From Candidatus Bathyarchaeota archaeon (lineage in GTDB: Archaea; Thermoproteota; Bathyarchaeia; Bathyarchaeales; Bathyarchaeaceae): a stretch of 64,000 nt of DNA. Below, one piece after another: positions 1-58,939 of the stretch. The stretch's first letter is position 1. Every line of letters starts with the position of its first letter. The notes beneath the pieces were generated by a model. The model made no database searches. It saw only the letters and a program-made list of their open reading frames with translations, and had not been told where the DNA came from. The stretch covers positions 55,554 through 119,553 of the forward strand of contig CAVOMX010000009.1 of the NCBI GenBank assembly GCA_963697165.1, read 5' to 3'. The position numbers were made by a program, and so were the translations under genes.

Positions 1-30
1 AATGCACATGCACAGAAAAACCTTCTTTTT

Positions 31-78
31 TTCCAGAAACTATATTTTCCTACGAAGATTCTTTTAGTTACTTCGTGA
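31..78 (+). repeat. island repeat site (Y module plus ACGAAG/CTTCGT hairpin)
   Basis: ttccagaaactatattttcctacgaag...cttcgtga. Confidence 0.7.
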
Positions 79-324
79 ATTTTCTTTCTCATAATAAAAA
101 GGTTTTAGGGTTCAATCTTTTGCAATCAATTAAGTTCATTGAAGCTGCAGTTTTTCTTTGCCCCTAATCCGTTAATACATATGCCTTAATTCGACTACAC
201 ACCTCTTTTGTCCATATATATAATTTAATAAGACGTAGTTTGAGTCCAATGGTCGAGCGAAAAAGTGACGAGAACAACATTAACTATAGGAAATAACTGT
301 TTGCTTTATTTCAGTTATATATAG

Positions 325-392
325 TAATTTATACTTGTCAAAGAAACCTCATTCTTGTTTACTGTTAACAGAAACTTTGTTTTCCAACAAAG
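325..392 (+). repeat. island repeat site (Z-Y modules)
   Basis: tatacttgtcaaagaaacctcattc...ttaacagaaactttgttttccaacaaaga; matches 9919-10000 and the reverse complement of 45150-45237. Confidence 0.85.
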
Positions 393-1013
393 AGTTTCCA
401 TGATCACATAAATAGACATAATGATTCTGTCAAAAAGAAGCGGATTCTGTGCGATTTGTCGAAGAGCTGGAGGAAAACATAAAAATGGGGTTGTATCCAG
501 AAGAAGGGTTTGCTGAGGCTTTAGCACAGTTGTTGATGAGTAAGGTCACATTCAATCTTTTTCAAGGGGGAAAGAATGTGTGCTCCTGTGCTTGCCTTTT
601 CAGCCCCATTCTATTCTTTTTGGTAGTTCCAAAAAAGGGGGAAGATTTTTTTGTGTATTGTCTTGTTTGAATAAATTTACATCATTCCAAAGGATTAATC
701 AAGTTTTTTTTTTTGTTCCAATCTGCTGTGAGTTGAATCGTGCTCATTTTCTATTTCAGAGACTTCTTTTCTAATCGCAAGTTTTGTTTCTTTCTCTGGA
801 AAGCCTTCTTCTGGTCCGCAATAGACAAGCTTAAAATCTGGTAACCCGATGATGCCAAACCCCACTCTTACGTTTTCGACGTCTCATTGACAACTCCCCC
901 AAATAACCAAATCATACTCATTATTCTCCTTTCCACTTTAACCAATCAAACCTCCTTCAAATCTACAAATTTCTAACCGATTACTCCCACAAAAAAAGGG
1001 GAGGGAAATTGGT

Positions 1014-3632
1014 TTATTTTCGTTTCTTTAGTGCCCAGAAGCTGACTACGCCAATTATGCTGGCAATTGCGACAGCTGCAATGATGGCTACTTCAGTGGT
1101 GATCAAAGGTGTTTCAGTGTGGCTCTGGTGAAGGTGACGGTTCAGGCAGGTTCGAAGGTGCTGGCGTTGGTGAAGGTTCTGGTGAAGGTGATGGGCTGGT
1201 GTAGGTGTTCTGGTGAGGTGATGGCTCAGGTGATGGTTCAGGTTCTATTGTTCCACCTGCTGTTGCAGCTGGTGTTACGGCAAAGGATGTTGCTGCGCTT
1301 GAAGGCCAATAGGATTCAGATCCCGCAAACTTGGCGATAACTTTGTAAATTCCCTCGGTCGATGGGACATACATGTGCGCATAGTTGCCATCTGAATCAG
1401 ATGTGACAGTAGTTATCCATTCTTCAGTGCCATCTGGTTTAACCACAAACAGATTCACTGGAACACCATCTGGGTTGGCGGATTGTTCAGCAGTGTTGCA
1501 TTCTGCATATTAAGATAGTCCATCCACTCGCTCATGTCCTCATCAGAAACTGCTGGTAGTACCTGGCCTGAGCAGGAGATTGATCCAATAACATTGCCTT
1601 TTATCAGCACTGTATGCGCCACTTAGCGACGACATCATTCTGGTATTGTTACTGAAGTTGAGGTTTGGCCTTTGCCTAAGCAATAGAGGTTTCCATCGTA
1701 ATCTCCGGTACCTATGACATAACCATTAGCAGCAGAAGAGGGGCGAAGTCCACCGTTTAAAGTAAATATAGTGTCTCCTGTAGTAGCGTCAATACATACG
1801 AGCATTCCAAACCTTGAAATAGGGTTGATTTTATACCCAGACGAATAGCCTGCGTAAACATAGATTTTACCATCTACCATGACCATGCCACTGAACGATA
1901 GGGCACTGCATTATTGGGGTACTCAGTTGAAGGAATAGGCTTACTCCGCCATACCTCATGTCCATCTGCCAAACTGTAAGCGCGCATTGTACCGTCCGGG
2001 AACATAAGCATACAAGTTATCGTTGTCATTGGTCTCAGCAAGTAAACGGTCCATGTTGTAGCCCACGTAGAGTCGCAGAAGCTGTCACTTTCCCACAATT
2101 CAAAGCGCCAGTAAGCATGGAGTAGCATTTGAACGTTGATTCAGTTGGATCAAAGACAATAAAGTTGTCCACGCCATATAAACTGAATTGCTGGTTAGCT
2201 AGAGTCGGATAGTTCAGGGTAAGGTTCCATAGTGAGGTACCGTTTTCTGCGCTGTAACCCCAGATACTGGTTGGGTGCGGCTTTACCACAACCGTAGACG
2301 CATCTGTTGATATTCCGAAGAGAGATTGGGGACTGGCTACGCGATGTAGCTAGTTGATTCTGGCAGTGGGCGTTGTCCATTCAATTCCTGTCGGCCAATT
2401 ATGACCACCAGTGCGTGTCCGTAAATGTTACAGTGACAACTTTCGACATGTTCCATGCTAAACAAGTTGTACGATCGTTGCTGTTCCATAGGCAAGATCG
2501 GTACCGTCAATAAGATTGAAGCACTTGCAGTAGCGTTAGCGATTGACCGCACTAGTGTTCCAGTAAAGGGATCATAGTAATTCCACGTACTGCCAGAGGT
2601 TCCAAATAGGTACGGTGTATGGTATTGTCCATAGGAGCTCTCGAGAACTACGTTCGAAGGATCAAAACATGCTTTGAGCATATGGGTTTCCAGGTAAGTG
2701 GATACCGCACAGTAATCGAGCCATCCACTGTGTACAATACTTCTCCAGTTGCTAAATCAATGCATTCAAACTGTGCCAGTATTCGCGAATATTTATCGAA
2801 TACTTTGCCTTCCATGATTACAGCACTTGGATACTAGAACCTTGAGGATCCATAGCTAAGGCTGCCATAATCTCCGCCTATAAGGCCTCCTGATCTAAGC
2901 GGTTGCTTCCAAACTATGTGGCCAGTGTTAGGTCCTGAACCATAGGGCTGCCAAATACGACAAGTAGGCACCGTTAACCGTAGCCGCCAGTTGACTGGCA
3001 CTGCCAAGCCAGTCGCCTGAGATTTGGTTCCATTCTCTGTTGTTGCTGTTTATTGGGTAGCTCCAGAAAACGTTTGGGTTCGGCAGTGCTGACCACGGAT
3101 AACCATTAAGCAAACCAGCCAGTACTCTTCAGTCTGAACTGTAAAGTAGGCATGTATTACTAGTGCATCCTATATATTGTACGGTTCCTGAACCGTCAGT
3201 TAAGTTCTGTGCAGGCATCGTGAACGATACACTCCAGTTACCCGCCATGATTAGGCTCATAAAAGAAGTATATAGCGCCAAGTGACTGCGTTTGTCCTGG
3301 ATCATAATTGACCTGTTCCGTCTACCGGCATGAACGTGTCTTTTGTTCCGTCAGGTCTTACGAACGTCACCGTTACTCCCCTATAGCCGTCATAAGTATG
3401 GCTGATAAGCATAGTTTGTAGGTATAGGATAGATGAATAGGTTTACAGTTGCTGTTTGGCCGACTCCGACAAGTCTTGGTGCAACGTCGATGTAACCTGT
3501 AGTTTTCTCTGGCTGAGGAACACCAATTTGAGCCTGCACTGGAATATTTGCTAGCAACGAAAAAGCAGATGTTATTAAAATTGCCAAAATGATTGATGCT
3601 GTTAATTTTGTTTTGTTTATTGAAATTTGCAT
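1014..3632 (-). CDS. PQQ-like beta-propeller surface/secreted protein with C-terminal membrane anchor (copy 1; broken by multiple frameshifts)
   Basis: Consecutive minus-strand ORF fragments join into one protein. It has a signal peptide (MQISINKTKLTASIILAILITSAFSLLA), Trp-docking propeller repeats (GTSLWN, GHEVWRS, CIDATTG, DGNLYCLGKG), a P/S/E-rich linker (EPSPEPSP) and a TM anchor with basic tail (IIGVVSFWALKKRK*). It is paralogous to 47207-49695. Confidence 0.85.
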
Positions 3633-3720
3633 TGTTTTTTCTCCTTTTTGAGTTTTTTCCATCTTTACATTTTATTGTTTTTGGGAAAAAGAATTAAACT
3701 AAAAAATACTTGATCTTCCC

Positions 3721-3888
3721 CCTAGAATGCTATTTTGTAACAAAGAAGTATTTAACATTAAGTGTCAGCCCATGACTGACAACTTCTGAATCATTAATAC
3801 CTTCGAAATAAGATGGGAAAAAACAAATTGTCTCTGTGCTTAGGTTTCGACTAATGTTTAGCAAAGGTAAACCTCTTCGTGAAAAGCT
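3721..3888 (-). promoter_or_regulatory. conserved upstream region of beta-propeller gene copy 1, containing palindrome TGTCAG-N7-CTGACA
   Basis: Near-identical to 46968-47136 in inverted orientation. The palindrome at 3763-3781 lies just upstream of a TATA-like TTAAATA on the minus strand. Confidence 0.7.
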
Positions 3889-3939
3889 TCCAGAAACTTT
3901 ATTTTCCAACGAGCAGTCCAAGGCATAACTTGAATAGAA
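3871..3939 (+). repeat. island repeat site (X-Y modules)
   Basis: acctcttcgtgaaaagcttccagaaactttattttccaacgagcagtccaagg. Confidence 0.9.
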
Positions 3940-3947
3940 TTGGGTTT

Positions 3948-4221
3948 TTATGCACTTGCCCTGAAATACATTCGATTATTAACAACTTTTCTTGAAATTT
4001 TTCCTTTACTTACTAAATCCTGAAGAACCGAAACAAAATTTGCGACCATGAACGTAGCCATTTTGGAAGTCCCTGGCACATCAAAATCTACATTAAAACT
4101 TGTCGACCCCATTATTTCATCGTCAGTAAAGGCTTTTTCCTTGACGCTTCTTCAAGAAAGAGATAATCTCATCTTCCAGCTTAATAGAGACCCTTACAAA
4201 TTTCTCTTTGTCTATGGGCAT
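3948..4221 (-). CDS. small winged-helix-like protein (~90 aa, one frameshift; not in ORF track)
   Basis: Manual translation with one indel gives MPIDKEKFVRVSIKLEDEIISFLKK/EKAFTDDEIMG...VLQDLVSKGKISRKVVNNRMYFRASA*. The L..L...G.I motif followed by a beta wing fits a wHTH fold. Confidence 0.55.
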
Positions 4222-4419
4222 AGATATCACTCCATCATAAATCTATGAAACAAGAGCTTGAAATTGTTTATGTAACTCAAATCATAAGCATAACTAATAG
4301 TTTAAGCCAAACGTTTGTCGTAATTCGCTCGCATCCAGAAACTTGTATCTATTATTCACAACTTGTTTATACATAATTGTCTGAATTACCTAATATCTTG
4401 AGGTTCAGGCGTTTATTCA

Positions 4420-6925
4420 ATGAGTAGTGACATATCAATTGAAGCTTTTATTCAACATCTTGAAGAATTAAAAAAATTAACCGAATTTGAGAGATTTCGC
4501 AAATTTCTAAGGCTATTTTTAATTGGATTCTTCATAGGTAGAGAAAACAAAAAAAGAATAAAAGTATTAGCCTTAGAACTAAATAATATACTCCAACAAA
4601 AAAGTTGTGATTTGGAAAAACATGTATCAAATTCTTTAGGTATGAGCACATATCTAATTTCATCAGAAAAAAAAGGATTGTTAGATTCAATAGGCGTTTT
4701 AATAAATGGGCTTAAACAATTTTCAAACTCTAAAGTTCCGAATGTCGAATATATTAAAGAAATTGAGGAAAAGCTGACAACACTAAAAGAGTCAGTACTT
4801 GACTACAATAGCTCCTTCATTAGGCAAAGAAAAAGGGATTACCGTTATCTCTGGAGTAATGGGGAGTTTACTCTTGATGAGGAACAAATTACATCAATTG
4901 TAACTGACGATAAACATAATTTGGTGGTAGCTGCTGCAGGTTCAGGCAAAACAGAGTGGTACCAAATCACAAGAATTGCATACATAGTAAAAAGACAACC
5001 TGACTTTAGTCCACAAGAAAGAATTTTGGCAATTGCTTATCAAAACAAAGCTAGTGGTGAAATTGGAAGAAGACTAAAAGATAGATATGAAATTACGAAC
5101 GTTAATGTAAGTACCTTTCACAAGTTAGGTAAAGGTATTTTAGAAGAAGCAAGAAGCAAATATCGCCACTCTGATATAATTGATAATAATAAAAAACGAA
5201 GAACCATAGATAACCTTTTTAGACAAAAAATTGAAACTAACCAAAAATACTACAATTTGTTTCTAAGTTATGTTAAAACTCTCCATGATAAAGAAAAAAA
5301 GGAAACTGGAGAGGCAAACGGTATTTCTCTAGAATACGCTATAAAACAAGCCTATGTATCCATAGATAGAACCCAGGTAAATAGCAGAGCTGAAAAAGAG
5401 ATTATAGACTTCTTTCTGATTCACAAGCTCAATGGAAAAAAAATCATAGTAGAATATGAACCTGATGTGGGTGGATTTAGACCTGATTTTTACTTGCCAC
5501 AATATGATTTATACATTGAACATTGGGCTTTAAATAAAAATGGAGAAGTACCAGAATGGTTCAATCAATCCTCTGATGAATATAAGAAATCAATGGATAT
5601 GAAAAGGACATGGTTTAAAGCTCACAATAAATTATTTGTGGAAACCTTTACACACGAGTATAAGAAGAATAAGTCTGACAATTTTATTGAATTATTGAAG
5701 AAAAGAGTCATAGATGCACTAGAAACTAGAAGCAATCAAGATTTTGAATTTAGTCTTAAAAGTTATGATGAAATTGTTGAAATTGCCTGGAACTCTTATC
5801 TGTACTCCAGTAGATGATTTAATTAACTTCATAACATCTGCAAAAACCTATGGTTTGTCTCCAATAAACGTAAAGGGAAGACTAGAGAAGAGAAAATGGA
5901 GTGCTAAACAGATAGCTTTTGGGAATCTTGTTTTGCCAATATTTACAGAATATGAAGAGTTATTGCACTTGGAAGATAAAATCGATTTTGAGGATATGAT
6001 AAATAAAGCAACAGCTGAATTAGAGAACAATCAGAACTTGCGTGCTAATGTGTATGACCATATTCTAATTGATGAATATCAAGATATTAGTGCGCAAAGA
6101 TACAACCTAATCAAAGTCATGATGGAAAGAAATCCTAATTGTAAACTATTTTGTGTTGGAGATGACTGGCAAAGTATCATGGGTTTTTCAGGCTCTAACA
6201 TAAATTATTTTGTAAGGTTTGCAGAATATTTTGAAGACCCAGCAATAACCATAATCTCAACTAACTATCGAAGTAACCGTACAATTGTTGATGCAGGTGC
6301 AGATTTGATAAAGGACAATACAAGTTGTCAGGTACAAAAACCAACTAAAGCAAATAACAGTCAAACTAAATCAATTAAAGTGCTTAGGTCTCCTCACAAG
6401 AAAGATTATGAATATAAATATCACCAGCAAATTGCTGAGGACTGTATAAATCGCATAGTTGAATATCTTGAAAATGGTTATGCACCAACAGATATACTTG
6501 TGCTCACAAGATGCATGCGAACTAGGACCCGATTTGGATACAGATACCTACCAACAATTCAGATAATCAAAGAATTGGCAGAAGTAAACAATTTAGATGT
6601 AATTCACCAAAATTGGGAGAGTCCAAGAGGCATTAGATTACTTACTGCACATAGCAGCAAGGGTTTAGAAGCAAAAGTAGTTTTTATTATTAATGGTACC
6701 AAGGATATTTTTGGTTTCCCATGTGAAATAGAAGATTCTAATATTTATGAGCTAGCAAGAACAAACTATCCGCCTCAAGATAATCTAGAGGAAGAACGAA
6801 GGCTATTCTATGTAGCAATGACTCGTGCAAAGGATGAACTTTATATTTACACTTGGGAACCAGCAATGAGTAATTTTCTAACTGAAATTGAAGAGCATAC
6901 TAAAGAAATCCGACTAAATTACTGA
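4420..6925 (+). CDS. UvrD/helicase IV (HelD-like) SF1 DNA helicase with inserted PD-(D/E)xK-like domain; frameshift near 5800
   Basis: Motifs: Walker A AAAGSGKT, VSTFHKLG, ILIDEYQD, VGDDWQSI, NYRS, TAHSSKGLE, EERRLFYVAMTRAK. The insert reads RPDFYLPQYDLYIEHW. Confidence 0.9.
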
Positions 6926-7220
6926 ATAATTATACCCGTGCAAAACCTTTTACGCCTCCAAATTAGATGGTTTTTTGTTAAATAGATAAACCCAAGTTTA
7001 TATTCATCCTTTTTCAGTATCGCTTCTGAAGATAAAATTTCATCTATTTTCTGCTTTACTTTGTCTTCTTGATTTATTCCGAATAAAGGACCCAAAACAT
7101 TTCCCTTCTGTTCTTAAGACCAATTTAGCTATAACATTTCTCCTAATTGATTGTTAGAGCGTGAATTTTCCGAAAAAAGTTAAAGCAACTTAACCGAAAA
7201 AAGGAACATGAGAGATAATC

Positions 7221-7820
7221 TTGACTTCTAATGATTTGGTCAGATACAAAATATTGGAAATACTTTTCAACAAAGCCTCGTTGAGAGGAACAGACTGGAA
7301 TGTTAAACGTAAGGAAATGATAGAATCATTACCATTTGAGGAGAAGCAAATTGACTTCAACTTTTTTTATCTTTTCGACAAAGGTCTAGCTAAAATGTTC
7401 AAACACACATCTAAAAACTGGGAAACCGCAACAATCACAAGCAAAGGCATAGACGTTATCGAGCATAAACAGAATTTTGTTGAAGAATTACCCTTTATTC
7501 AGGTTGCGATTCAAGAAATCAATGCACCTATATACGGTAATGCGATTCAAGCTGTCAATTCCACAATTACCTTTAATCAACAAGTGACGGATGCCTTCAA
7601 ACAAACCTATCAAACACTTGAAACTAAGAAAGATTTGACACCCGAACAGAAAACAGAGATAAAGAAAAACTTGATTATTCTAGAAGAGGAACTAAAAAGC
7701 AAAGACAAAGACGCGGGTAAAATCCAAAAGTTGTGGAAAAGAATCAAGAAAAATGCTAGTTGGATAGCTCCAATACTTGTTAATATTGTCCTAAAAGGAT
7801 TGGAGATTTCAATAGAATAA
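7221..7820 (+). CDS. hypothetical protein (N-terminal winged-helix-like, C-terminal helical)
   Basis: 199-aa AT-rich ORF. RYKILEIL...YLFDKGL...ITSKGID is a wHTH-like pattern. Confidence 0.65.
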   Translation: MTSNDLVRYKILEILFNKASLRGTDWNVKRKEMIESLPFEEKQIDFNFFYLFDKGLAKMFKHTSKNWETATITSKGIDVIEHKQNFVEELPFIQVAIQEINAPIYGNAIQAVNSTITFNQQVTDAFKQTYQTLETKKDLTPEQKTEIKKNLIILEEELKSKDKDAGKIQKLWKRIKKNASWIAPILVNIVLKGLEISIE

Positions 7821-7837
7821 TCATGCAAACAGTAAAA

Positions 7838-7903
7838 TCTTCGTGAAATGCTTCCAGAAACTTTATTTTCCTACGAGCAGTTCAAGGGACAATTTAAATA
7901 GAA
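7838..7903 (+). repeat. island repeat site (X-Y modules)
   Basis: tcttcgtgaaatgcttccagaaactttattttcctacgagcagttcaagg; near-identical to 3871-3939. Confidence 0.9.
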
Positions 7904-8167
7904 ATAGCAAGAAACAAAAAGAACCATAAGCAGAAAAAATGATGAAGTTGGAAACCAAACGTTGATAATTACAGAAACAAATCACATTCAAAGACTTCCT
8001 AACAGAACAGATTTGATGAACATAGAACCTACGTTTTTGATGATGTTTATTCTATAAAATTATTAATATTCACCACAAATGTTATCTAAAGGTATATTTG
8101 ATAACGTAATCGGGGGAGAGATTACTTTCTGTAATTTTCCTTTCAAAAAAGATAGAATGGAGGTGAA

Positions 8168-8623
8168 GTGAATTTGAAGTCTCGTTCTGTGAATATTGCT
8201 TGGAAAATACTGATGATTCCTAACCTTGTTTTTGTAGTCTTTGGTCTTGCATTTGTGTTAATTCCAGATGCCATTTTGGGTAGTGGCTTTGAATTGTATA
8301 CTGGTCAAACTTGGAGCAATCTTGTTTCCACAAGTCCTGAAATCACTGATTTCATTTTGTTAACTGCAGGCAGAATGTTTGGTGTTCATATTCTTGTTCT
8401 CACAACTCTAGCCATCGCTATAACCCTTAAAGGTTTTAGAAATGGAGAAAGCTGGTCATGGTATGCCTTTATTGCAATCAGTTTTGGTATGATTTTTGAC
8501 ACAGTTGCGGTATTTATCATGGGGGAAATACCTGTTGTAGTGATAGACATAATCATGCTATTGCTCATGTACATAGCACTAGGAATTTCTGCAAAGGATA
8601 TGCTCAGTAAAAAATCCACCTGA
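8168..8623 (+). CDS. hypothetical membrane protein (about 4 TM helices)
   Basis: 151-aa hydrophobic ORF with a GGAGGTGA Shine-Dalgarno immediately upstream and a T-rich tract downstream. Confidence 0.8.
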   Translation: MNLKSRSVNIAWKILMIPNLVFVVFGLAFVLIPDAILGSGFELYTGQTWSNLVSTSPEITDFILLTAGRMFGVHILVLTTLAIAITLKGFRNGESWSWYAFIAISFGMIFDTVAVFIMGEIPVVVIDIIMLLLMYIALGISAKDMLSKKST

Positions 8624-8754
8624 GCATGCTACCTTCTCTAAAACCCAAACTCCTCTTTTTTTCTTAATGAAACCCAATAACATTAGGTTATTATGTGTAC
8701 AAAGTTGGATGATGCAAAATCATATTCAAAGACTTCCCAACAGAACGTAATTAA

Positions 8755-9319
8755 TAATCACAAAGCTTTAATGTATATTCCAGCGTATTATAATTGCTGA
8801 GCCATCAAGGGGACAAATCAAAACATACCTCTAGCTCAAGCGTTTTTGAACATAAAATTTCATTATTTTGTAAGATAGATATGGATTGTTTTTTAGTAAA
8901 GTTTATTTTCTTATATTTCATTTATGATGAAGAGTAGTATCCCAATCTGAACTGGTTCTATCTCCCCCTGATGACTCAGTTTCATTATGATTGGGATACT
9001 GCTTTCCTTCTCAACATTACATCTTTGTTGATAATAGAACATTCTTTTATAACATTTCTAAACCTTAACCACAAATATTATTACGGTAAATACCTGATAA
9101 AACAATTGGGGGAGTCCACAAATCCAATTCTGGGTTAGTCATTGTAACGGTTAATTATCTGTTAGAAACACTACATTCTGAAGTCTGTCACTAACTTTGG
9201 TGGCACACAACCACTTTTCAACTCAAACGAAACAAAACTCAGTTCTCTGCTTCAGAGACCAGAAGCAAACGGAGACACTCTCTAATCAGAGTTAATAAAG
9301 GAAGAAGGGAGGTGAAAGA
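8755..9319 (+). repeat. conserved ~560-bp non-coding leader, copy A
   Basis: Aligns by eye along its whole length with the reverse complement of 45956-46498, e.g. the shared blocks aatcacaaagctttaatgtatattccagcgtattataattgctgagccatca and caactcaaacgaaacaaaactcagttctctgcttcag. Confidence 0.95.
8924..8990 (+). ncRNA. box C/D-like RNA inside leader copy A
   Basis: Box C ATGATGA 8924-8930, D' CTGA 8947-8950, C' CTGATGA 8968-8974, D-like ATGA 8987-8990. The same layout is conserved in copy B. Confidence 0.5.
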
Positions 9320-9808
9320 ATGAATATGAAAATTTTAGGTGTTTTCGTTAGTTTGTTTACTTTAGCTTTGTTAACGATTCCAGTAATGGCTGCACCAGCA
9401 ACAAAAATTGAAGGGGTTACATTGACTAGAGTCACTACACCACCCGTTCAGGATCCTGGCTTTCCACGGTTGGTAAGTCATGATACCATATCACATGGAA
9501 GAGGCACAACTACAGGTACAGCTACTCTAACCATAGGACAAGACATTCATGATGGAGATTGGGATAGTGAATGGATTTCCGTGGTTAATTTGAAAAAAGA
9601 TCCAGTTGAGATGGTAATTAGCGCTACGGTCAAATTGACTTTCACAGGAGGCACGTTTGAGGGTACGAGCCATAGAAAGATAATAGGGTACCCACCTGGA
9701 CCTAGTTCAATTATCGAAACCCATATGGTACTTCAGGGTACTGGAGATTTTAGGGGACAAACACTAAAACATTCAGGTGGTACTTACTATCTAATAATGC
9801 CCAAATAA
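9320..9808 (+). CDS. secreted beta-rich hypothetical protein
   Basis: Signal peptide MNMKILGVFVSLFTLALLTIPVMA, Gly/Thr-rich beta strands (GGTFEG, GTGDFRG), GGAGGTGA SD. Confidence 0.8.
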   Translation: MNMKILGVFVSLFTLALLTIPVMAAPATKIEGVTLTRVTTPPVQDPGFPRLVSHDTISHGRGTTTGTATLTIGQDIHDGDWDSEWISVVNLKKDPVEMVISATVKLTFTGGTFEGTSHRKIIGYPPGPSSIIETHMVLQGTGDFRGQTLKHSGGTYYLIMPK

Positions 9809-9918
9809 CCAAAATAAAGAACCGTAACACCACATTTCCTCTTTTTTCTATCCAGAAACAGTAACATCAGATTTTATTGGTTTGTGGGTAAATCGAATTT
9901 TCTAAACAGTGCATTTTT

Positions 9919-10032
9919 GCAGTTAACTAAGTCAATGTATACTTATCAAAGAAATCTCCTTCTGGTATACTATTAACAGAAACTTTATTTTCCCACGAAG
10001 AGCCTCAGGCAACCTCTTCGTGAAAAGCTTCT
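9919..10032 (+). repeat. island repeat site (Z-Y-hairpin-X modules)
   Basis: gcagttaactaagtcaatgtatac...gtatactattaacagaaactttattttcccacgaagag-cctcaggcaac-ctcttcgtgaaaagcttc, with a perfect 9-bp stem at 9994-10002/10014-10022. Confidence 0.9.
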
Positions 10033-10093
10033 TTCTTCTGAAGGCAGATTTTATATAGAAAAAACAAGAAATCCTATTCAAGGAAAGAGTCTC

Positions 10094-11374
10094 GTGAACA
10101 AAGAATTTCTCGAAGACTATCAAAAAAAAGAATTAGAAGAATACAGATCGTATTGCAATAAAATTGATCTTGAAAGTTTCTCATTTAAAAAATTTCCATA
10201 TCCACCAGATGAACGTTTCGTTAAAATTAAAAAACCAGTAACAATTGCAAGTAATGAATCATTAAAAGGGGATGCAATTTGGGCACAATTACCTTTTACT
10301 GGTTCTTTAATTTTTCCAATATTTGATATTCCAAAAAGAAGATTTGAAGAAATCTTTTTCCAAACGAAAGAAATCCCAAAATTAATTGATTATGTTAAGG
10401 AAACAGGAAAGTTACAATTTGTTTTAATCGGGGATCTCAAAAGATTTGAAAAATATGATTATTTGGAACCAATATTTACAGAATTGAAACCTCCAATGCT
10501 TTTTGGAATTAGTACCCACGATTTAGGTAATAAAAAAGATATAATTGAGGCTGGAATGAAGTTTGAAACCCTTGCTAATGTAAATTATTCACGTTTCGTC
10601 TGGGAAGAATCACAACAAAAGGGCAGCTTTGCTTATAAACCAATAATGGATAGCTGTTCATCAACATATGTAAAGTTAAAAATGCTTCATTTTGACGCAA
10701 TTATGGAATCTCTTGAGAACTACATGATTGTCGATCCATACAAAGCATTCTTTATGTTTGATTTATGTAGTAAGTATATTGTTAGTCCATTAACCACACT
10801 TAGACATGAAGGAATTAATTCAACAACTGAAGAAATTCAAAAACTAAAAAATCTAATTCCAGATCATAAACTTGAGGAAACCATATTTCCAGTTGAAATT
10901 GGAAAGTTCCTCTTGAATAAACTAACTCGCGCCCCCAAAGGGCAATATGCTTGTAATGAATTAATTAGCCATTATGAAGATTACGATTTAAGAAAAATTG
11001 TTCTCGCTTTAAACACCGCTATTGTTGAAAATCAATTTTATGACATAGAGCAAAATATTGAAACACTGTCGGAAATTCTTGAAAACGTATGGTCTGACCC
11101 CCTAATTAAGACAAGGATTGAACTCCAAAAATATGCTGTTCTAATAATATTTGCAGCAATTGGGATTAAAATTGCACAATTAGAGGGGGGCGTGGGAGGA
11201 TTTCTTACAGGAATTGGGATTACTGTTACTGTTTTAAACAAATATATTGATAAAGAAGGTGACAAGATTTTTGAAAAAATAGCCAAGTTGCGTTGTCGAG
11301 GACATCAGGTTAACATTTTTGATTTTCAAAAAACATACAAAAATATAATCCCTCAAAATAACACAAAGAGTTGA
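10094..11374 (+). CDS. hypothetical protein with a C-terminal hydrophobic hairpin
   Basis: Intact 426-aa AT-rich ORF lying between two repeat sites; no family recognised. Confidence 0.75.
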   Translation: MNKEFLEDYQKKELEEYRSYCNKIDLESFSFKKFPYPPDERFVKIKKPVTIASNESLKGDAIWAQLPFTGSLIFPIFDIPKRRFEEIFFQTKEIPKLIDYVKETGKLQFVLIGDLKRFEKYDYLEPIFTELKPPMLFGISTHDLGNKKDIIEAGMKFETLANVNYSRFVWEESQQKGSFAYKPIMDSCSSTYVKLKMLHFDAIMESLENYMIVDPYKAFFMFDLCSKYIVSPLTTLRHEGINSTTEEIQKLKNLIPDHKLEETIFPVEIGKFLLNKLTRAPKGQYACNELISHYEDYDLRKIVLALNTAIVENQFYDIEQNIETLSEILENVWSDPLIKTRIELQKYAVLIIFAAIGIKIAQLEGGVGGFLTGIGITVTVLNKYIDKEGDKIFEKIAKLRCRGHQVNIFDFQKTYKNIIPQNNTKS

Positions 11375-11539
11375 TAATGCATTTTATGTTACCTTTTAAC
11401 ACGGGGTGATAGAGATTCTTAGTCAAATAGCAGTAAGTTAGTTAAATAAAACGTTACCTTTTTTATGCTATTTCAATATGAAAAACCAATGTTTACTTAT
11501 TGTTTTGATAGTATGTTTTCCCTCACATAAAGTGGGTTT

Positions 11540-11593
11540 CTATTAACACATCTCAGCGAAAAGCTTCCAGAAAATTTATTTTCCAACAACGAG
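11540..11593 (+). repeat. island repeat site (degenerate X-Y) at the island/core boundary
   Basis: ctattaacacatctcagcgaaaagcttccagaaaatttattttccaac. Confidence 0.8.
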
Positions 11594-11755
11594 CCTATAT
11601 GCAGTTTGTAGCTGAAAAGAAAAGTCTCATAATAAAGAAGGCTTTTTAGGGTAATCTTTTCTCCCTACTTGCATGGTTTGGCATTCTATTAACAGAAGTG
11701 CTATTTACTTACTAAAAAAAGTTAGTTATGTCAGAATAGCAGTAGTTTGGCAGGG

Positions 11756-30788: not shown

Positions 30789-30994
30789 TAACTACGTTTT
30801 GTCTCTGATGTAATAGGACGGAACTAAAAACCTTTTCGTATTTACCGCAGATTTTATGTTAAAGTCCACTTTAGGCTTCTGTAAATAATGTTGCAGGAGC
30901 GCCAGAAAACAAAAGGTGCATTCATATTAGGAGACTAATAACAGCTGATTGTTGAAAACAGCCTTTTTTCAGGAAAACATATCTACAACAAATC

Positions 30995-44991: not shown

Positions 44992-45149
44992 ATAGAAGCC
45001 TCCTATTACACAGCTAATTACACAATATAGTGTTTTAAACACTTTCTTGCATTATACGAAATTAGCTGTTCTTTAGACTCTTTCCTTTAAATATCATACG
45101 TAAACTTAAAGTTTCTGCTATTTCAAATTCGGTTATTTCACTTCCAAAT

Positions 45150-45237
45150 CTTTGTTGGAAAATAAAGTTTCTGTTAATAGTATACCCGAATGAGGTTTCT
45201 TTGACAAGTATACATTGACTTAGTTAACTGCAGAAAT
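45150..45237 (-). repeat. island repeat site (Z-Y modules), inverted, at the core/island boundary
   Basis: Reverse complement reads gcagttaactaagtcaatgtatacttgtcaaagaaacctcattcgggtatactattaacagaaactttattttccaac. Confidence 0.9.
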
Positions 45238-45955: not shown

Positions 45956-46498
45956 TTTTTCACCTCCCCTATGTTCTTTTATTAAATCTGATTAGGGAGT
46001 GTCTCCGTTTGCTTCTAGTCCCTGAAGCAGAGAACTGAGTTTTGTTTCGTTTGAGTTGAAAGTTTGTGTGCAACAAGTTGGTGACAGACTTCAGAATATT
46101 GTGTGTACGGAATTAATACTAACAATGACTAACCCAGAATTTGTTTATGTTTTATCAGGTATTTATCGTAATACATATTTGTGGTTAAGGTTTACAAATG
46201 TTATAGAAGAAAGTTCTATCGATAATAATGAACCAATATTTAGAAAGGAAGCAGTATCCCAATCATAACAAAACTAAGCCATCAGGGGGAGATAGAGCTA
46301 GTTTCAGATTGGGATACTACTCTTCATCACAGAGGAAAATATTAAAATTTAAACTTTGCTAACAAACAATCCATATCAGTCTTACTTAATGAAAAGTTTA
46401 CATTCAAAAACGCTTGAGCTAAGGGCATGTTTTGAATGTTCCCCTGATGGCTCAGCAATTATAATACGCTGGAATATACATTAAAGCTTTGTGATTAT
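45956..46498 (-). repeat. conserved ~540-bp non-coding leader, copy B
   Basis: Inverted homologue of 8755-9319. Confidence 0.95.
46263..46330 (-). ncRNA. box C/D-like RNA inside leader copy B
   Basis: Minus strand: GTGATGA-agagtagtatcccaat-CTGA ... CTGATGG-cttagttttgtt-ATGA. Confidence 0.45.
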
Positions 46499-46902: not shown

Positions 46903-46967
46903 AAAAGTCACCTCTATATTCTACAAGTTTCTTGCTCATTCTATTTAGCATCTGCCTAGACAAAGAT

Positions 46968-47136
46968 AGCTTTTCACGAAGAGGTTTACCTTTGCTAAAC
47001 ATTAGTCGTAACCTAGGCACAGAGACAATTTGTTTTTCCCATCTTATTTAGAAGGTATTAATGATTCATAAGTTGTCAGTCAGTGGCTGACACTCTTAAT
47101 GTTAAATACTTCTTTGTTACAAGAGAGCATTCTAGG
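46968..47136 (+). promoter_or_regulatory. conserved upstream region of beta-propeller gene copy 2 (X module and TGTCAG-N7-CTGACA palindrome)
   Basis: Homologue of 3721-3888. The palindrome at 47074-47092 is followed by GTTAAATA. Confidence 0.7.
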
Positions 47137-47206
47137 GGGACAGAGTTAGCATTTTTTAGCTTTAATCTTTCCCCCAAAAACAATAAAAAATCAAAGGATG
47201 AAAAAT

Positions 47207-49695
47207 ATGCAAATTTCAATAAACAAAACAAAATTAACATCAACAATCATTTTGGCAATTTTAATAACATCTGCCTTTTCGTTAATAGCAAATATTCCAG
47301 TGCAGGCTCAAATTGGTATTCCACAGCCAACAGAAAGTGCAGGTTACATCAGCATCGCACCAACACTAATCGGAGTTGGCCAAACAGCAACTGTAAACCT
47401 GTGGATTTTTCCTTTACCTGAAAACTATTTTTATGAGCCATTATTTGGTGGCTACACCGGAATAACGGTGACGTTCACAAAACCTGACGGAACAAAAGAC
47501 ACGTTCATGCCAGTAGACGGCACAGGTCAATTTGGTCCAGGACAAACAAGTCACTTGGCACTTTATTCTTCTATTATGCGCCTGATATGGCGGGTGATTG
47601 GAGTGTATCATGTCACGATGCCTGCACAGACCATAACCGACGCAACTGGAACCGTACTTTATCAAGCATGCACTAGTGAACCTGCCTACTTTACTGTTCA
47701 ACTGAAGAAAATTGGCTGGTTTGCTTAATGGTTATCCGTGGGCACCACTGCCGGACCCAAACGCTTTCTGGGACTACCCAATAAACGGCAACAACAGAGA
47801 ATGGAGCCAAATCTCAGGCGACTGGCTTCAGCCATGGTATAGTGCTTTCACAGCGGTTTTCGGTACCACTTTTAATACATGGCAGCCTTATGGTCCAGGA
47901 CCTAACACTCCGCACATAGTTTGGAGCAACCGGTGGCCCCGGGAGGCCTTGTAGGCGGAGATTATGGTAGCGTAAGTTACGCTCAGCTCGTACTTGGCGT
48001 TGATGTAGGCACTGTAGTCATGGAGGGCAAAGTATTCATTAATGTTCCCAATTCCGGCGACAGTTTAAATGCATAGATGTGGTCACTGGAGAAGTGTTGT
48101 ATACCGGCGCCTGGAACAATTACCAATGGTATCCACTTACCTGGAAACGTATATGTCCAAGCGTTTGTGACCCGACAGTAGTTACTCGCCAGTTCTTAGG
48201 GATCAACATCCAATGCGTACCTGTTTGGGACCTCCGGGACCACATGGAATTACTATCATCCCTCACAGGGGCTCTAGTTAGGTCAATCTCTAACGCGACC
48301 CACATGGTGTTGGGTTCTTTAACGGTGCTCGACTTGTTGACGGTACCAATTTTGCCTATGGAACACAATGGATGGGCAGTTGTATCGTTGGGATCTGACG
48401 AGAGTTGTCAATAACAATTGGCCGACAGGAATCACATGGAAAGTCCAATCCTACACTATTAGGAGGTAATGAGCCCAGCTATCTTTGGTGGTACTCCATT
48501 CTCTTCGCAGTATCCTCGGATGTGTCTACTCTTGTGTAAGGACCATTAACCAGTTCTGGGGTTTCAGTGCAAATGACGGTACCTTGCTATGGAACCTTAC
48601 TGTGACGTATCCGATCACTGCTAACGAGGTATTCTCTTTATAGGGCGTAGAGGACTTTATTGTCTTTAATCCAGTTGATGCAACATGGCACTGCTACTCC
48701 ATGCTTACTGGCGATTATTTATGGGAAAGCCCCAGCTTTGCCGACTCTCCGTGGGCTACAACATGGAGCGTTTATAGCATTGGACCAATGACTACGAAAA
48801 CTTGTATCTTACAGTTCCCTGACGGCACAATGACCGCTTATAGTTAGAAACGGGACAAGAACTATGGCGTTGTGAGCCTATATCTCTCGACTGAGTACAC
48901 CCACTAATGTAGTGCCCTACAGTTCTGGCATGGCGATGATGGGTGGTAAAATCTATCGGATATGCAGGCTATTCCAAGGATATCAAATCAACCCGTTCCA
49001 AGACTCGCAATGATGGTATGTGTTGACGCTTCTACCGGAGAATTCATCTGGACTTTAAATGGTGGAGTACGCCCCAGTGGCTACTTCAAGTGGTTACGTC
49101 ATAGGTTTAGGTGCGTACGATGAAAAACTGTATTGCATAGGCAAAGGTCCAACCGAAACAACTGTAATGGCATCACCAAAGGTCTCTGCACATGGATCAA
49201 GTGTATTGATTGAAGGTTCAGTTCGTGATATGTCTCCTGCCACCCAAGAATACGCGTCTCAAGTACGGTTCCCGAATGGAGTTCCTGCTGTTGCCGATGA
49301 GGACATGAACGAGTTCATGGACTACTTGTATATGCAAAACGCAACGTTGTTGAACAATCCGCCAACTCCTGATGGTGTTCCAGTGAAACTATTTGTGGTC
49401 AAACCAGATGGCACTGAAGAATGGATGACTACTGTTACTTCGGATTCGTATGGCAACTATAAGTACGATTATGTTCCGTCAGCAGAGGGAGTTTACAGTG
49501 TAATAGCCAAGTTTGAGGGGTCTGAAACATATTGGCCTTCAAGCACAGAAACTTCCTTTATTGCAACACCAGCTGCAGCACCAGGTGGCGTAATCGAACC
49601 CGAACAACCACTAATCAGCACAGACATGGCAATAATAATTGCAGTTATCGCAGTTGCAATCATAGCAGCAGTCGCATACGTGTTTCTCAGAAGAA
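47207..49695 (+). CDS. PQQ-like beta-propeller surface protein (copy 2; multiple frameshifts; stop codon cut off at the junction)
   Basis: Same signal peptide as copy 1, then NNREWSQISGDWL, LYCIGKGP, VPAVADEDMNEFMDYLYMQ, GSETYWPS and the TM anchor IIAAVAYVFLRRK. Confidence 0.88.
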
Positions 49696-49737
49696 AGCAA
49701 TCAGTGTTGTGTCCTCTGCTTGGCTCAGCGTATTGCT
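49696..49737 (+). other. Oxford Nanopore ligation adapter remnant at a chimeric junction
   Basis: AGCAAT (read-end adapter start) is followed by TCCTCTGCTTGGCTCAG---CGTATTGCT, compared with the adapter TCCTGTACTTCGTTCAGTTACGTATTGCT. Base composition and taxon change abruptly at this point. Confidence 0.85.
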
Positions 49738-50559
49738 TGGCGGTGCCGTTCACCCCGGTGGGGGGTCAGCGCCTGCTCGTGCACCCCTCGCGCACCGGCG
49801 ACGCACGCGAGGCGGTGCTCGGCGCGCTCGCCAGGGGCCTGCAGGAGGCGTCGCGGGGCTGCTTCGGGATGCACGTGCTGTTCGACACCGCCGAAGAGGT
49901 CGACTGGCTCGATGCCCACGGCCTGTTCCCCCGCCTGCAGTACCAGTTCCACTGGAACAACGACGGCTACGACACGTTCGAGGACTGGCTGAAGTCGTTC
50001 TCGAGCGACAAGCGCAACAAGATCCGTCGGGGAGCGCAAGGAGCTCCGGGGGCTGACCCTCGAGGCGATCGTCGATCCCAATCCGGCCATCCTCGACGCG
50101 CTCCACGACTTCCACACCCTGACCGCCTCGCAGTTCGGCCCCTGGGGCCACGTCTACCTGTCGAAGGCCAGCCTTCCGCCAGCTGGGCGAGACGTGGGGC
50201 CACCGCCTGCACGCCGTGGTGGCCCGGGACGGATCGCGGATCGTGGGGGGCGCGTTCAACGTGCTCAAGGGGGATCGCCTGTACGGCCGCTACTGGGGCT
50301 GCAGCGACGACATCCGGTTCCTGCACTTCGAGGTCTGCTACTACAAGGCCATCGAGGACTGCATCGAGCGCAGGATCGCGGTGTTCGAGCCCGGCCACGG
50401 CGGCGGCCAGAAGTACCGCCGGGGCTTCGTGCCCACCATCACCCACTCGAACCACCGCCTCGCCGACGACCGGCTCAACGATGCGCTGCGGCGGTATACC
50501 GAGGAGGAGGCCGCCGAGGTGAGGATCAGGCCGGCGTGCTCACCCAGCGGATGTCGTGA
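49738..50559 (+). CDS. FemAB-like GNAT (DUF482) protein, 5'-truncated and frameshifted (bacterial)
   Basis: Motifs AVPFTPV, HVLF, QFHWNNDGYDTFEDWL, LYGRYWG, LHFEVCYY, FEPG. Confidence 0.9.
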
Positions 50560-50879
50560 TGGCCCCGCCGGAAGCGCGCACGGTGCCGCCGCGGGAGTGG
50601 ATGCTCGGCGTAGTGCTGCTGCTCATCGCGTGCTACTCCACGTTCGCGGTCCTCGACTCGGTCCTCGGCTACCCGGCCGGGGTCGGCATGGTGCGCACGA
50701 TCGGCTACCGGCTGCTGCTCGTGGCGGCGGGCTGCTGCGTGCGGCCAATCGGGCTGGGGGCGGCGGTGGTGGCCGCGGCGCTGCTGTGGTTGGGGCTCGA
50801 CGTGCTCGCCTGGCTCGACGTGTTCGACGTGTACACGGCGCTGCAGGGCGGCACCGGCTTCGTGTACTTCGAGTTCTGA
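50559..50879 (+). CDS. hypothetical membrane protein
   Basis: About 106-aa hydrophobic ORF with GC3-biased codons, overlapping the upstream stop. Confidence 0.7.
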   Translation: MAPPEARTVPPREWMLGVVLLLIACYSTFAVLDSVLGYPAGVGMVRTIGYRLLLVAAGCCVRPIGLGAAVVAAALLWLGLDVLAWLDVFDVYTALQGGTGFVYFEF

Positions 50880-50884
50880 CCGCC

Positions 50885-51679
50885 ATGCACGTCGAGCCGT
50901 TCACTGCCGACGATCTGGAGGCGCTGCACCCGCTGCTGAACGTGTCCGCCGGGACAATCGTCTCGCTGGATGACGAGCGCGCTCGTATGGCGGCGCTACA
51001 GCCGGACCACTGGCTGCTCGCGCGCGACGACGGGCGCCCGCGGGGGTTCGTCCGGGAGCTGCCCCGGCCCGAGGGGGGATACCGCGGCGAGGCGCACGCC
51101 GTCGACGGCCCCGAGCGGCTGGACGTGCTGCGGCGGCTGGTCGCGGCGTTCCTGGCCCGGCGCCCGCCCGGGCCGCTGCGGTTCGTCGTCGCGCTGGAGG
51201 AATCCGTTCGCGCGGGTCTCGAGGATCTGGCGTTCCGGGCCGAGCGGTTCCTCTACTCGCATACGATCTCCGCCTCGCGGCGTTTCCGGACACGATCGGC
51301 GTCCGCAGTGCGGCGGACAGCGACACCGACGCCGTCCAGCGCGTGCTGCGCCCCGACGGCGAGCCCATCGCCGGGCTGCAGGACGCCGTCGCGCAGCACG
51401 TCGTGCTGGTGACCGTCGGCGCCGTCCGCGGCGCCGTCCGCCTCGTGCAGCGCGGCGAACACGCCGAGGTGATCGACCTGGCCGTGGATCCCGAGTCCCG
51501 CCGATCAGGGGATCGGCCAGCGGCTGATCCGCGCGGCCTGCCGGCCAGGCGAAGCGCGAGGGCGTGACCTACGTGACGGCGCTGGTGTCGGTGTCAACCG
51601 CAAAGCCCGGGGGCGCTACGAGCGGTTCGGCTTCCTCCACCGGCCCGAGCGCGATCAGCTGTGGCTCGACCTCCGCTGA
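50885..51679 (+). CDS. GNAT family acetyltransferase (frameshifted)
   Basis: MHVEPFTADDLEAL...; EVIDLAVDPESR.SG; YERFGF. Confidence 0.7.
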
Positions 51680-51683
51680 TACC

Positions 51684-52540
51684 TCACCCCCGGGGGCCGG
51701 GCACCGACAGCACGCGATGGGTTACCGCGCACCACGCCGACGGCGCTTGCCCGGAGACACGCCGGTGTCCACCTGCGCCAGGCGCAGCGCGCGCCGGCGG
51801 CGCACGCGGGGGAGCACCGTGTGGCCCGAGACGTGCGTGCGCTCGTACTCGTCGGGGGCCTCCGTCGGCCGCTGGCGCCCCCACAGGGCCTGGGCGTTGG
51901 CCTTCGTGCGCCGGCGGAACATCTCGTCCGAGTCGAAATCCGCGAGCCCCTCGGCGGTCGTCAGCGCGTGCGTCACCACCACCGTCTCCGAGCGGAACAC
52001 CATCGGCAGCGCGCAAAGGAACCGCAAATCGTCGAGGTCCGCCACAGTCGCGGGCTCGGCCGGAGACGAGGTGCATAGTTCAGCATCGGCGCCTCGCCCT
52101 GGGCGAGCCACATCAGCGCGCGAAACCAGCAGAACGACTCGCGCGGCAGCCAACTTCACGACGCGTCTCGCTGTCGCTCCCACGCCTCGCCGTACGGCAC
52201 GACGGCGGGATGCAGCGCGCAGTCCGCCGCCGACAGCAGTTTTTGCGGCGCGAACGCCTCAATCGTCGCGAGCATCATCTCCTCGTGGTTTCCACGAGGA
52301 TCGCGGCGTGGGTGCCGGCGGCGACCCCCTCCCGCAGGTGGCGCACGACGCCGGCCGAATCGGGGCCGCGATCGACGATGTCCCCGACGAACACCACCAG
52401 CGGCTCGAGGCCCTCTCGGGCCGCGTCGCGCGCGATCCGGTCCTCGAGGCGCTTGAAGGTGCCGAGGCAGCCGTGTACGTCGCCGACGATGGCGTGGAGC
52501 CTGGCGCCGGCGGACTCGTCCGGTCGTTTCTCACTCCAGG
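51684..52540 (-). CDS. metallophosphoesterase (PrpA/ApaH-like Ser/Thr protein phosphatase), frameshifted
   Basis: Motifs GDVHGC, GDIVDRGPDS, a GNHE-like segment, VSGHT, VDTG. Confidence 0.85.
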
Positions 52541-54118: not shown

Positions 54119-54280
54119 GTTCCCCACCGCGTTCTATGAAGGACCGCGCACCGATTGCGCCCGAATCGTTGTTCGGAATGCCACACGGCGCGGCCCGGGC
54201 GGAGTCCCCCGAGGGTTCCGGGAAGCACGGCACGCGTGTTGCAATTAACTTCTGGCCGTCCACCCCCGCACGGAGTTCCG

Positions 54281-55043
54281 GTGCGTACCGCAGCCGACGT
54301 GATAACGCCGATCCGCTGTTCGCCGAGCGGGCGACGGCTTCGCCGCCTGCGCCGAGCGGATGCGTCGTCTCCACGTCCGCCACCTGCTGGTCGCGGTGCC
54401 GGGCGGCGTGGGCGACCGTCCCAGGAAGCCGCCATCCGAGGCCACGCCGCCGGCGGAGACCTCGCGGCCGCGGTCGTCCCGATCCCGACGGCTCCGCCGG
54501 ATCTGCCTCTGGAGAGCCTGCTGTTGCAGCTCCTGAGCGCCAGCGGGGACCTCGTGGCGGTCGTCGGGGAGGACGGATCTCCGATCGGCGTGTTCACCGA
54601 GTACGACGCGATGCGCCTCGCTGCGGGGTACTTCGACAACGTCCCCGCTCGCCGATCGCCACGAGCGGGATGGGTCGCCGAGCCCGAGTCGACGCTGCAG
54701 CGGGCGCGGTTCGCGCTGAAGCACCACGGGATCGCCACCTCCCCGTCGTGTACGAGGGTCGGTTCGTCGGGATCGCGGACCACCGGGATCTCGAGGAGGT
54801 CGACGCGGCGTCCGATCGGTTCCTCGCCGAGATCGCCAGCCCCCCGACCGCGACCGTGGTCGGCGACACGTCGGTGCGGGAGGCCGCGGAGCGCCCTGGC
54901 GATTCAGAAGGTGGGGTGCCTGCCCGTCATCGGCCCGGACAACGATCTGCGGGCGATGCTGCACCGCCACCGACGTGTTGCGCGCGCTGATCGGCGAGGT
55001 CCGCCGGCGAGCGCCGGCATCGCTCACCGGGCGCGGCGCTTGA
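54281..55043 (+). CDS. CBS-domain protein, frameshifted
   Basis: VVGEDGSPIGVFTEYD, RHLPVVYEGRFVGI, KVGCLPVI. Confidence 0.75.
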
Positions 55044-56578: not shown

Positions 56579-56649
56579 TTCTCTAAAATTGCAGATTTGC
56601 CATCAAGTCGGATCGAGACCTTCCGGTGCTCGCAACGTATGGAGGTCCG

Positions 56650-58307: not shown

Positions 58308-58383
58308 TCGGGCCGACGGCGGCCGCCCCCGGCGCTCGGAGTGCTCGGTGGTCGCGGGACCTCGCCCCGGGTACTCCGCAGAC

Positions 58384-58837: not shown

Positions 58838-58939
58838 CGTTGGATCGTCCCGCGGATTTGGGTTGACCGGCTTGCTCATCGGGCTCCCGAGGGCCGTCCT
58901 CGACCCTCGCCCTGATCCGGATACATCCGGGCCCACCCA

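Follow-up and report, generated by a model that had tools for sequence, protein, structure and literature searches.

The 64,000-nucleotide stretch of DNA analysed here, which we call the window, lies at positions 55,554 to 119,553 of contig CAVOMX010000009.1 (C9:55554-119553) in the genome of a Candidatus Bathyarchaeota archaeon (GenBank assembly GCA_963697165.1; G000; 1.99 Mb, 81% complete). It holds two islands, island 1 on the left and island 2 on the right, with a 33-kb core between them (11,800-44,700). Both islands carry a family of short repeats assembled from three modules: Y, which is 28 bp long (34-61, for example) and opens with CAGAAAC; X, of 19 bp; and Z, of 64 bp. These repeats are our subject, and Y is probably part of one arm of an integrative element. 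Throughout, G numbers denote genomes (relatives within the genus), L numbers other loci, C numbers contigs and P numbers proteins, and X1 and X3 are sequencing runs. Three sequencing runs were compared, as contigs, and have small word shares with the source genome.

Results

Position and polarity of the repeats

Y occurs at 34, 369, 3891, 7855, 9977 and 11568 on the forward strand and at 45157-45173 on the reverse strand, each copy having at most one mismatch to a 17-mer. X is found at 3873, 7837 and 10014 (forward) and at 46968-46983 (reverse), and Z lies directly 5' of Y at 369, 9977 and 45173. Homology between the regions upstream of the two beta-propeller genes stops at 3888 versus 46968. 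An earlier note on this DNA had placed all of these features, including the Y at 45173 and the end of the beta-propeller homology, to within a few bases; the X that it reported at 11556 is X-like but degenerate (15/19 positions, about 11549-11567). All Y copies of one island or locus share a polarity, and the patterns for Y, X and Z have no match in the 33-kb core, both of which agree with that note. The features are as follows.

15-33, forward: T-tract (W), the terminator-like left flank of the first Y
34-126, forward: Y copy (34-61) with a T4-family tail, held in common with 11568 to about +90
305-368, forward: Z variant, a 64-bp module 5' of Y; a near-identical form is present in L052
369-396, forward: Y copy
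3816-3862, forward: decayed arm and RNase P RNA 3'-end (attachment core) remnant 5' of X; L038 aligns here with a score of 104, X-Y included
3872-3890, forward: X
3891-3948, forward: Y copy with a shortened tail, like that of 7855; cargo homology to C11 begins at +58
4336-4344, forward: truncated Y start, the eighth; a full Y stands at the equivalent place in L043
7836-7854, forward: X
7855-7942, forward: Y copy with tail; a module present without Y on C25 begins at +88
9913-9976, forward: Z module with a sharp left edge at 9913, where six loose contig ends fall
9977-10032, forward: Y-linker-X unit, 55 bp, whose bottom strand forms a long bulged hairpin
11549-11567, forward: degenerate X
11568-11660, forward: Y copy with T4 tail, the last arm of island 1
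11727-11735, forward: right copy of the 9-bp direct repeat bounding island 1; the left copy, at C9:54318-54326, lies outside the window
1-11735, unstranded: window part of island 1, with a frameshifted beta-propeller gene, a UvrD helicase gene and unassigned open reading frames (ORFs) as cargo
45017-45173, reverse: Y copy (45146-45173) with tail; homology to relatives resumes at +146 to +164, and an exact ATT-N4-AAT lies at +148
45174-45237, reverse: Z module
46966-46984, reverse: X without Y
46995-47040, reverse: decayed arm and RNase P RNA core remnant, homologous to 3816-3862

Nine Y copies are present in the source genome: the seven in the window, one at C9:54579 (975 bp upstream of the window) and one at C16:26383. 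A Y weight matrix finds eight sites in this genome and none in its reversed sequence. The family is narrow, in that a 26-mer with three mismatches allowed was found in 4 of 60 genomes of the taxonomic family, all of one genus; Y is also present in one named Bathyarchaeota record whose long blocks are 68-83% identical to the source genome. Viral contigs contained neither a Y match nor a relative of the protein P0001 (described below), and no Rfam family matched at the Y, X or Z sites in window positions 1-50,000.

For comparison between loci we assembled a set of 39 Y sites from metagenome loci, genus loci and L052. Twenty-seven metagenome loci were reduced to 18, two being set aside as duplicates and seven dropped by eye. 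Those judged by eye to be chance matches were L034-L037, L039, L042 and L050 from the metagenomes and L011, L014 and L017 from the genus; the duplicates L041, L047 and L051 and the truncated Y at 4336 were also left out. L052 itself is 20 kb of Bathyarchaeia-like DNA of 40% G+C content (GC), in which Z|Y and X|Y sites occur, as does a pair of transposase-like ORFs. It lies in a record titled as a Chloroflexia metagenome-assembled genome, and is likely to be mis-binned or chimeric.

Module edges and permuted flanks

Y becomes conserved abruptly, some 3 bases ahead of CAG, and conservation declines beyond about +28. In run X3 the summed contig depth, which is not a copy number, climbs from 237 to 2302 across 9974-9987; it steps up at 9913 and 9974-9987 and down at about 10005 and 10031-10037, and steps that coincide with the limits of conservation are present in the contigs of the three compared runs, of which X3 is one. 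Module edges in the population contigs are accordingly sharp at 9913, 9974-9977 and 10031-10034.

The left flank of Y is of at least seven kinds. An X-like sequence (at least 15/19 positions) precedes 13 of the 39 sites and Z four of them, the remainder having T-tracts, gene ends or decayed forms; thus the flank is not always X or Z, as had been proposed, and at copy 34 it is a T-tract of a type found 215 times in the genome. The last three bases before Y are TTC in 23 of the 39 sites, as variable remnants of the end of X, whose ends vary over about 5 bases. X and Y are themselves imperfect inverted copies. The hairpin said to join them at 9977-10032 does fold: the stretch 9970-10035 has z = -3.3 on the top strand and -4.2 on the bottom strand, and none of ten other stretches fell below -1.2, excluding a longer one that contains the hairpin. 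Four Y-linker-X units are known, at window 9977 and in L024, L028 and L046, so that the full hairpin is seen in 4/39 sites.

The permutation of flanks described in the earlier note is supported, Z|Y being joined in another sample to the tail of copy 34. Supported too is its view of the repeats as parts of mobile DNA that site-specific recombination has rearranged. Other samples have joints at many further points in these intergenic modules, and promoter modules within the islands are widely shuffled. An upstream module of about 550 bp (window 8754-9303 and 45974-46498; also on C25, C12 and C22) is reused before unrelated secreted proteins, and the 162-aa and 198-aa ORFs behind it are not clearly homologous. 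Parts of the two islands are copies of one another in inverted orientation, with the Y at 11568 (forward) and that at 45173 (reverse) facing the core from both sides, a layout that could reflect an old inversion.

Sequence 5' of X leads to the RNase P RNA gene (rnpB), whose last ~20 bases are copied directly 5' of X-Y in 6/39 sites. The intact gene lies at C9:47224-47522, with displaced copies of its 3' end at C9:48221, 51441 and 55283, C12:32213 and C16:26339; such copies occur in tandem in the genus. The 3' end of rnpB is an integration site in this genus, with integrase ORFs behind it in G006 and G024 and a broken one in G014. Because the displaced 3' ends sit just 5' of X, and because a decayed arm and core lie at 3816-3862 and at its mirror position, X looks to have been the DNA that followed an attachment core of rnpB, even though its match to the trailer of the genome's own rnpB spans only about 14 bases.

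The joints between island and host DNA

Island 1 is an insert of ~13 kb between an enoyl-CoA hydratase-like gene and a thiolase gene, which are adjacent in G019, G014 and runs X1 and X3, the site being unfilled in G019 and in both runs. A 9-bp repeat bounds it, the left copy standing about 260 bp ahead of the first Y and the right copy 160 bp beyond the last (11568); contrary to the earlier note, Y does not mark the island boundary itself. The insert in L043 is 690 bp long, contains Y twice and has a 16-bp repeat as its boundary, 84 bp beyond the second copy. Elsewhere, the point at which homology to genomes lacking Y resumes lies 85-92 bp past CAG; another group of loci has it at +58 to +68, and in some it falls at +100 or beyond. 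Overall, the joints of island and host lie 58-160 bp from Y, and no filled/unfilled pair whose two sides are both accounted for was broken at CAG. The fixed breakpoint at CAGAAAC is thus not supported as the island/host crossover, the joints lying instead 85-92 bp past CAG at ATT-N4-AAT or at the 9- and 16-bp repeats.

ATT-N4-AAT, which we term the core sequence, is what stands at the joints +85 to +91 past Y. It lies within +82 to +96 of 8/39 Y sites (actual positions +87 to +92, six contexts), whereas none of nine other intervals of 15 nt exceeded two sites and 2000 shuffles of the tails averaged 0.8 sites, never more than 5. The count of eight is weakened by the choice of the +82 to +96 interval after the alignments had been viewed and by two of the six contexts being counted twice. 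All four Y-less loci of the source genome that were compared (tRNA-Gln on C18, C23, C11 and tRNA-Pro on C16) have this 10-mer where homology to Y-bearing relatives resumes; at tRNA-Pro its central four bases differ. Its position relative to genes varies, the extremes being on the start codon and about 100 bp upstream, and it is therefore not simply a TATA box. The tails behind Y are common to unrelated host loci, and hence belong to the element. Patterns for the left and right arms gave only chance-level matches without Y in the source genome.

A complete island and an end-to-end junction in relatives

The fullest case is a 10-kb island on G019 C66, with the order transcription factor B (TFB) gene, core sequence, P0001 homolog (77%), P0002 fragment, cargo, Y-tail, core sequence and tRNA-Gln promoter. 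The TFB and tRNA-Gln genes are adjacent on C18 of the source genome, the unfilled counterpart. Flanking core sequences together with an empty attB are thus available in one full case (G019 against C18), and three further cases show the right end only.

At L049, one contig presents a P0002 gene, a Y-tail, a 10-bp motif, 14 bp, the core sequence, another 14 bp, a perfect inverted copy of the 10-bp motif and a P0001 gene. In both L049 and G019 the core sequence lies 83 bp before the P0001 start. As read from its sequence, the L049 layout is an attP or a tandem joint. Y, the CACGAAGAG 9-mer and the 10-bp inverted repeat are candidate protein-binding sequences. A recombinase gene is present at the element end in G019 C66 and L049, and not in the islands of the window.

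The recombinase families P0001 and P0002

Public homologs number 284 for P0001 and 99 for P0002. PF00589 matches weakly in 12/12 aligned P0001 members and 11/13 aligned P0002 members, both queries scoring below the curated cut-off. In the P0002 family the R, K, R, W, Y set is retained and there is a zinc-ribbon insert; the P0001 family has a SAM-like domain and keeps HxxR and the tyrosine. Neither catalytic domain has a sequence match in PDB. In L030 and L049 the end of P0002 is 22-24 bp away from the Y that follows it.

Several neighbouring observations concern other recombination sites and enzymes. L001, L002 and L117 are tyrosine recombinases whose N terminus bears an IS1-type zinc ribbon, and a genome may have several of them. 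A separate repeat family, R2 (~45-55 bp long, with a variable spacer separating its two conserved halves; window 30919-30978, reverse strand), has 36 copies in the source genome, occurs in 18 of 24 other genomes of the genus with up to about 50 copies per genome, and often lies beside tRNA genes, rnpB islands and integrase genes. R2 looks like a dispersed tyrosine-recombinase or dif-like site and is possibly a better lead than Y. A link of Z or Y to R2 was rejected, their likeness being short, AT-rich and weaker still for the majority Z variant. We likewise did not accept that the P0001 fragment on C16 marks the left end of an element whose right end is at C16:26383: the 14 kb between are mostly housekeeping genes, and no left arm was found there.

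Other features of the window and genome

From about 49.7 kb the GC rises from about 0.45 to 0.70-0.75, and window ~49690-64000 is a probable chimeric join at which an archaeal beta-propeller gene runs on into DNA with bacterial genes (FemAB-like, AMP-binding). Because of the GC jump and the bacterial genes, we think it probable that a false join interrupts island 2; a short stretch at ~49690 resembles what we take to be sequencing-adapter remnants. Many island genes are frameshifted. The frameshifts that split the UvrD helicase gene (4420-6925) and both beta-propeller genes (1100-3660 and 47198-49690) are probably sequencing errors. Elsewhere on the contig, C9:2000-22000 is provirus-like, with terminase-, portal- and tail-like ORFs recognised by eye, followed by a low-GC island. 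The genome has five copies of the TATA-binding protein (TBP) gene, on C6, C23, C11, C18 and C3, and several homologs sit in Y-bearing island loci.

Discussion

Taken together, these observations make it probable, in our judgement, that Y and the ~60 bases after it form the right attachment arm of a Bathyarchaeia integrative element, which a tyrosine recombinase would insert at a loose ATT-N4-AAT ~90 bases 3' of CAGAAAC. The copies in the window would then be stranded, decayed arms in two accreted islands, the residue of repeated rounds of insertion and deletion. This interpretation builds on the position, polarity and island restriction of the copies, on the fixed distance of the core sequence in relatives, on one complete island and on one dyad junction. 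Since none of the seven window copies keeps the core sequence at the standard distance, they are assigned by homology of Y and the tails rather than by intact joints.

On this model the element would enter as a circle carrying arm-core-arm, and the recombinase would swap strands within ATT-N4-AAT with a similar host 10-mer. Later arrivals would stack in one polarity because the right joint stays a target. Integrase genes and left arms would then be lost and the cargo inside the arm replaced, and exchange within the 28-bp Y, with deletions stopping at Y, would permute flanks and tails into the X-Y, Z-Y and Z-Y-X orders. A P0001-family enzyme, perhaps with P0002, would do the cutting; either may be the cutting subunit. 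Y itself would be a putative distal protein-binding site, its sharp left edge arising from conservation and not from a cut, and X may have trailed an RNase P RNA attachment core before coming to lie just inside the arm.

Several observations weigh against this interpretation, beginning with the post hoc choice of the counting interval. The core sequence is lacking from 31/39 Y sites, and 0/7 window copies have it in exact form at +87 to +92; at copy 45173 there is one at +148, near the point of resumption (+146 to +164), but the relatives lack it there. The 9-bp and 16-bp joints of island 1 and L043 are not ATT-N4-AAT, and at C23 and C11 no left end of the filled island was observed. The sharp left edge of Y in population contigs is what a cut site would also give. 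The enzymes are scarce: among 29 Y-bearing loci, P0001 occurs in two (L049, G019) and P0002 in three (L030, L049 and, as a fragment, G019), and the 81%-complete source genome yielded only a 55-aa P0001 fragment, no P0002 and no intact cognate enzyme. G003 and G012 possess Y without a P0001 match. Strong P0001 matches occur in 8 of 401 genomes drawn from the class, seven of which lie outside the genus and lack such an arm. P0002 as a dedicated Y enzyme was rejected, the other P0002 homologs examined having no Y behind them. Furthermore, the P0001 family has G-W-E where we would expect the first catalytic arginine, and P0001 may therefore not be the cutting subunit.

It is tempting to speculate that the element has two working recombinases, one inserting it at almost any intergenic ATT-N4-AAT and the other, the zinc-ribbon protein P0002, using the edge of Y inside the right arm as an attI-like port to load and shuffle gene cassettes ending in X or Z; this would be an integron-like capture system unrelated to IntI and attC. 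We regard this as unlikely, although a second crossover at CAG may occur, given the sharp left edge of Y, the four Y-linker-X hairpins and the placement of P0002 just before Y. Doubtful to a like degree is the integron-like array of the earlier note, in which Y would be an attI-like site beside P0002; each cassette would begin at Y and finish with X or Z, form a circle closed at X|Y or Z|Y, and enter at |CAG. Such an array would accommodate the three sharp module edges, the catalytic set kept by the P0002 proteins next to Y, the variety of left flanks with Z|Y bearing another copy's tail, and the bulged bottom-strand hairpin of Y-linker-X. attC sites are defined by RYYYAAC...GTTRRRY cores, however, and a simple pattern test found this pair in 0/7 window sites and 1/39 overall. 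No tyrosine recombinase match lies on C9, and among the 8 of 10 such matches scanned in the 81%-complete genome the best TIGR02249 (IntI) score was 62 against a cut-off of 265. The rarity of the full hairpin, the variable ends of X, the TTC remnants, the joints at many other points in other samples, the want of any filled/unfilled pair broken at CAG and the absence of P0002 from the source genome also speak against an array.

A non-autonomous miniature element of ~55-90 bp, resembling a miniature inverted-repeat transposable element (MITE) or repetitive extragenic palindromic (REP) sequence and mobilised in trans by a transposase of the DDE or HUH type, would explain why X and Y are imperfect inverted copies, why the minimal Y-linker-X recurs four times and why Y often adjoins T-tracts just after stop codons. 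We consider it improbable: there is no target duplication around the four units, Y never stands in both orientations around a transposase, and the dyad junction between two recombinase genes would be left unexplained. The enzymes, too, are wanting, with no matches in the source genome for PF01797 (Y1 HUH) or PF02371 (IS110/IS1111, DEDD), and PF01548 in 0/5 relatives; TnpB families were not searched. The IS110, Y1/REP and MITE readings were rejected for lack of enzyme or target duplication, and a serine-recombinase reading of X|CA|Y, which would keep the central dinucleotide at both hybrid joints, because the serine recombinase families PF00239 and PF07508 have no match in the source genome and a lone X is not followed by CA. 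We hold it to be very improbable that Y serves as a portable promoter or regulatory site which ordinary recombination has spread along with intergenic modules. The next ORF is co-oriented at 27/36 sites, and the promoter modules of the islands are indeed shuffled; nevertheless, the distance to the next co-oriented start runs from 53 to 702 bp, 9/36 sites face a convergent gene, Y is absent from the core, and downstream tRNA genes share their own upstream region with genomes lacking Y.

For a class of archaea that is almost uncultured, the integrative-element interpretation supplies a low-specificity element with a concrete attP, attB and candidate enzyme pair, and makes Y a sequence marker of island ends and synteny breaks in Bathyarchaeia. 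A recombinase needing only ATT-N4-AAT on the host side would explain the occurrence of cargo such as beta-propellers, helicases and TBP copies at many intergenic sites, and could serve as a tool. The window holds remnants only, and its own interest is thus limited.

Comparison with known systems

In their passages on low-specificity tyrosine integrases, PMC5812530 and PMC5704250 describe Tn916 and the integrative mobilisable elements (IMEs) Tn5520 and MTnPi1-3 as having many AT-rich targets, variable central bases and several copies per genome, the MTnPi elements using two integrases. The proposed Bathyarchaeia element resembles these in its tyrosine recombinase, many AT-rich targets, several copies per genome and variable central bases. 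Unlike those described there, it is archaeal, has a 10-bp ATT-N4-AAT flanked on both sides, at a distance of 14 bp, by a repeat, and carries a conserved motif ~90 bp inside its right end (PMC5812530, PMC5704250). It also differs in that no conjugation, relaxase or Xis gene was identified and in that one enzyme has an atypical catalytic motif. The window islands recall the cis-mobilisable elements (CIMEs), which the relevant passages of PMC5704250 present as integrase-less remnants with att arms, accreted in tandem at att sites in one polarity; here too, integrase-less arms are piled in one polarity in composite islands, but the arms are spread over many host loci, most without the core sequence.

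The SEs, GInts, RIT and Tn554, listed for bacteria only in the part of PMC10214605 that treats them, have three or four core genes in one block. Common ground lies in two recombinase-fold proteins, one possibly non-catalytic, and in imperfect inverted repeats at the joint; by that description they are set apart from the present element, whose two genes lie at opposite ends. Integron arrays and clusters of attC sites lacking an integrase (CALINs), including the archaeal ones in the main text of PMC9668308, where the term 'bathy' does not occur, likewise have short repeats of one polarity between unrelated cargo, one form here being a bottom-strand hairpin. They are distinguished by the attC core pair and IntI that are lacking here, by the hairpin being confined to 4/39 sites and by joints lying away from the repeat.

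As for archaeal tyrosine recombinases, the review PMC8371274 reports short and intergenic att sites, with no such loose target in its abstract, selected passages, section 16 part 1 and section 19. Islands at tRNA and tmRNA 3' ends, as covered in those sections, are matched by the displaced rnpB 3' end with an arm 5' of X; this likeness explains only the neighbourhood of X, since Y and the core sequence belong to a different target. No description of a Y-arm element was found in the full-text literature, a scope outside which supplements and most subscription papers fall. Most likely, then, the Y-arm element is previously undescribed and inserts in the mode of the known low-specificity integrase elements.

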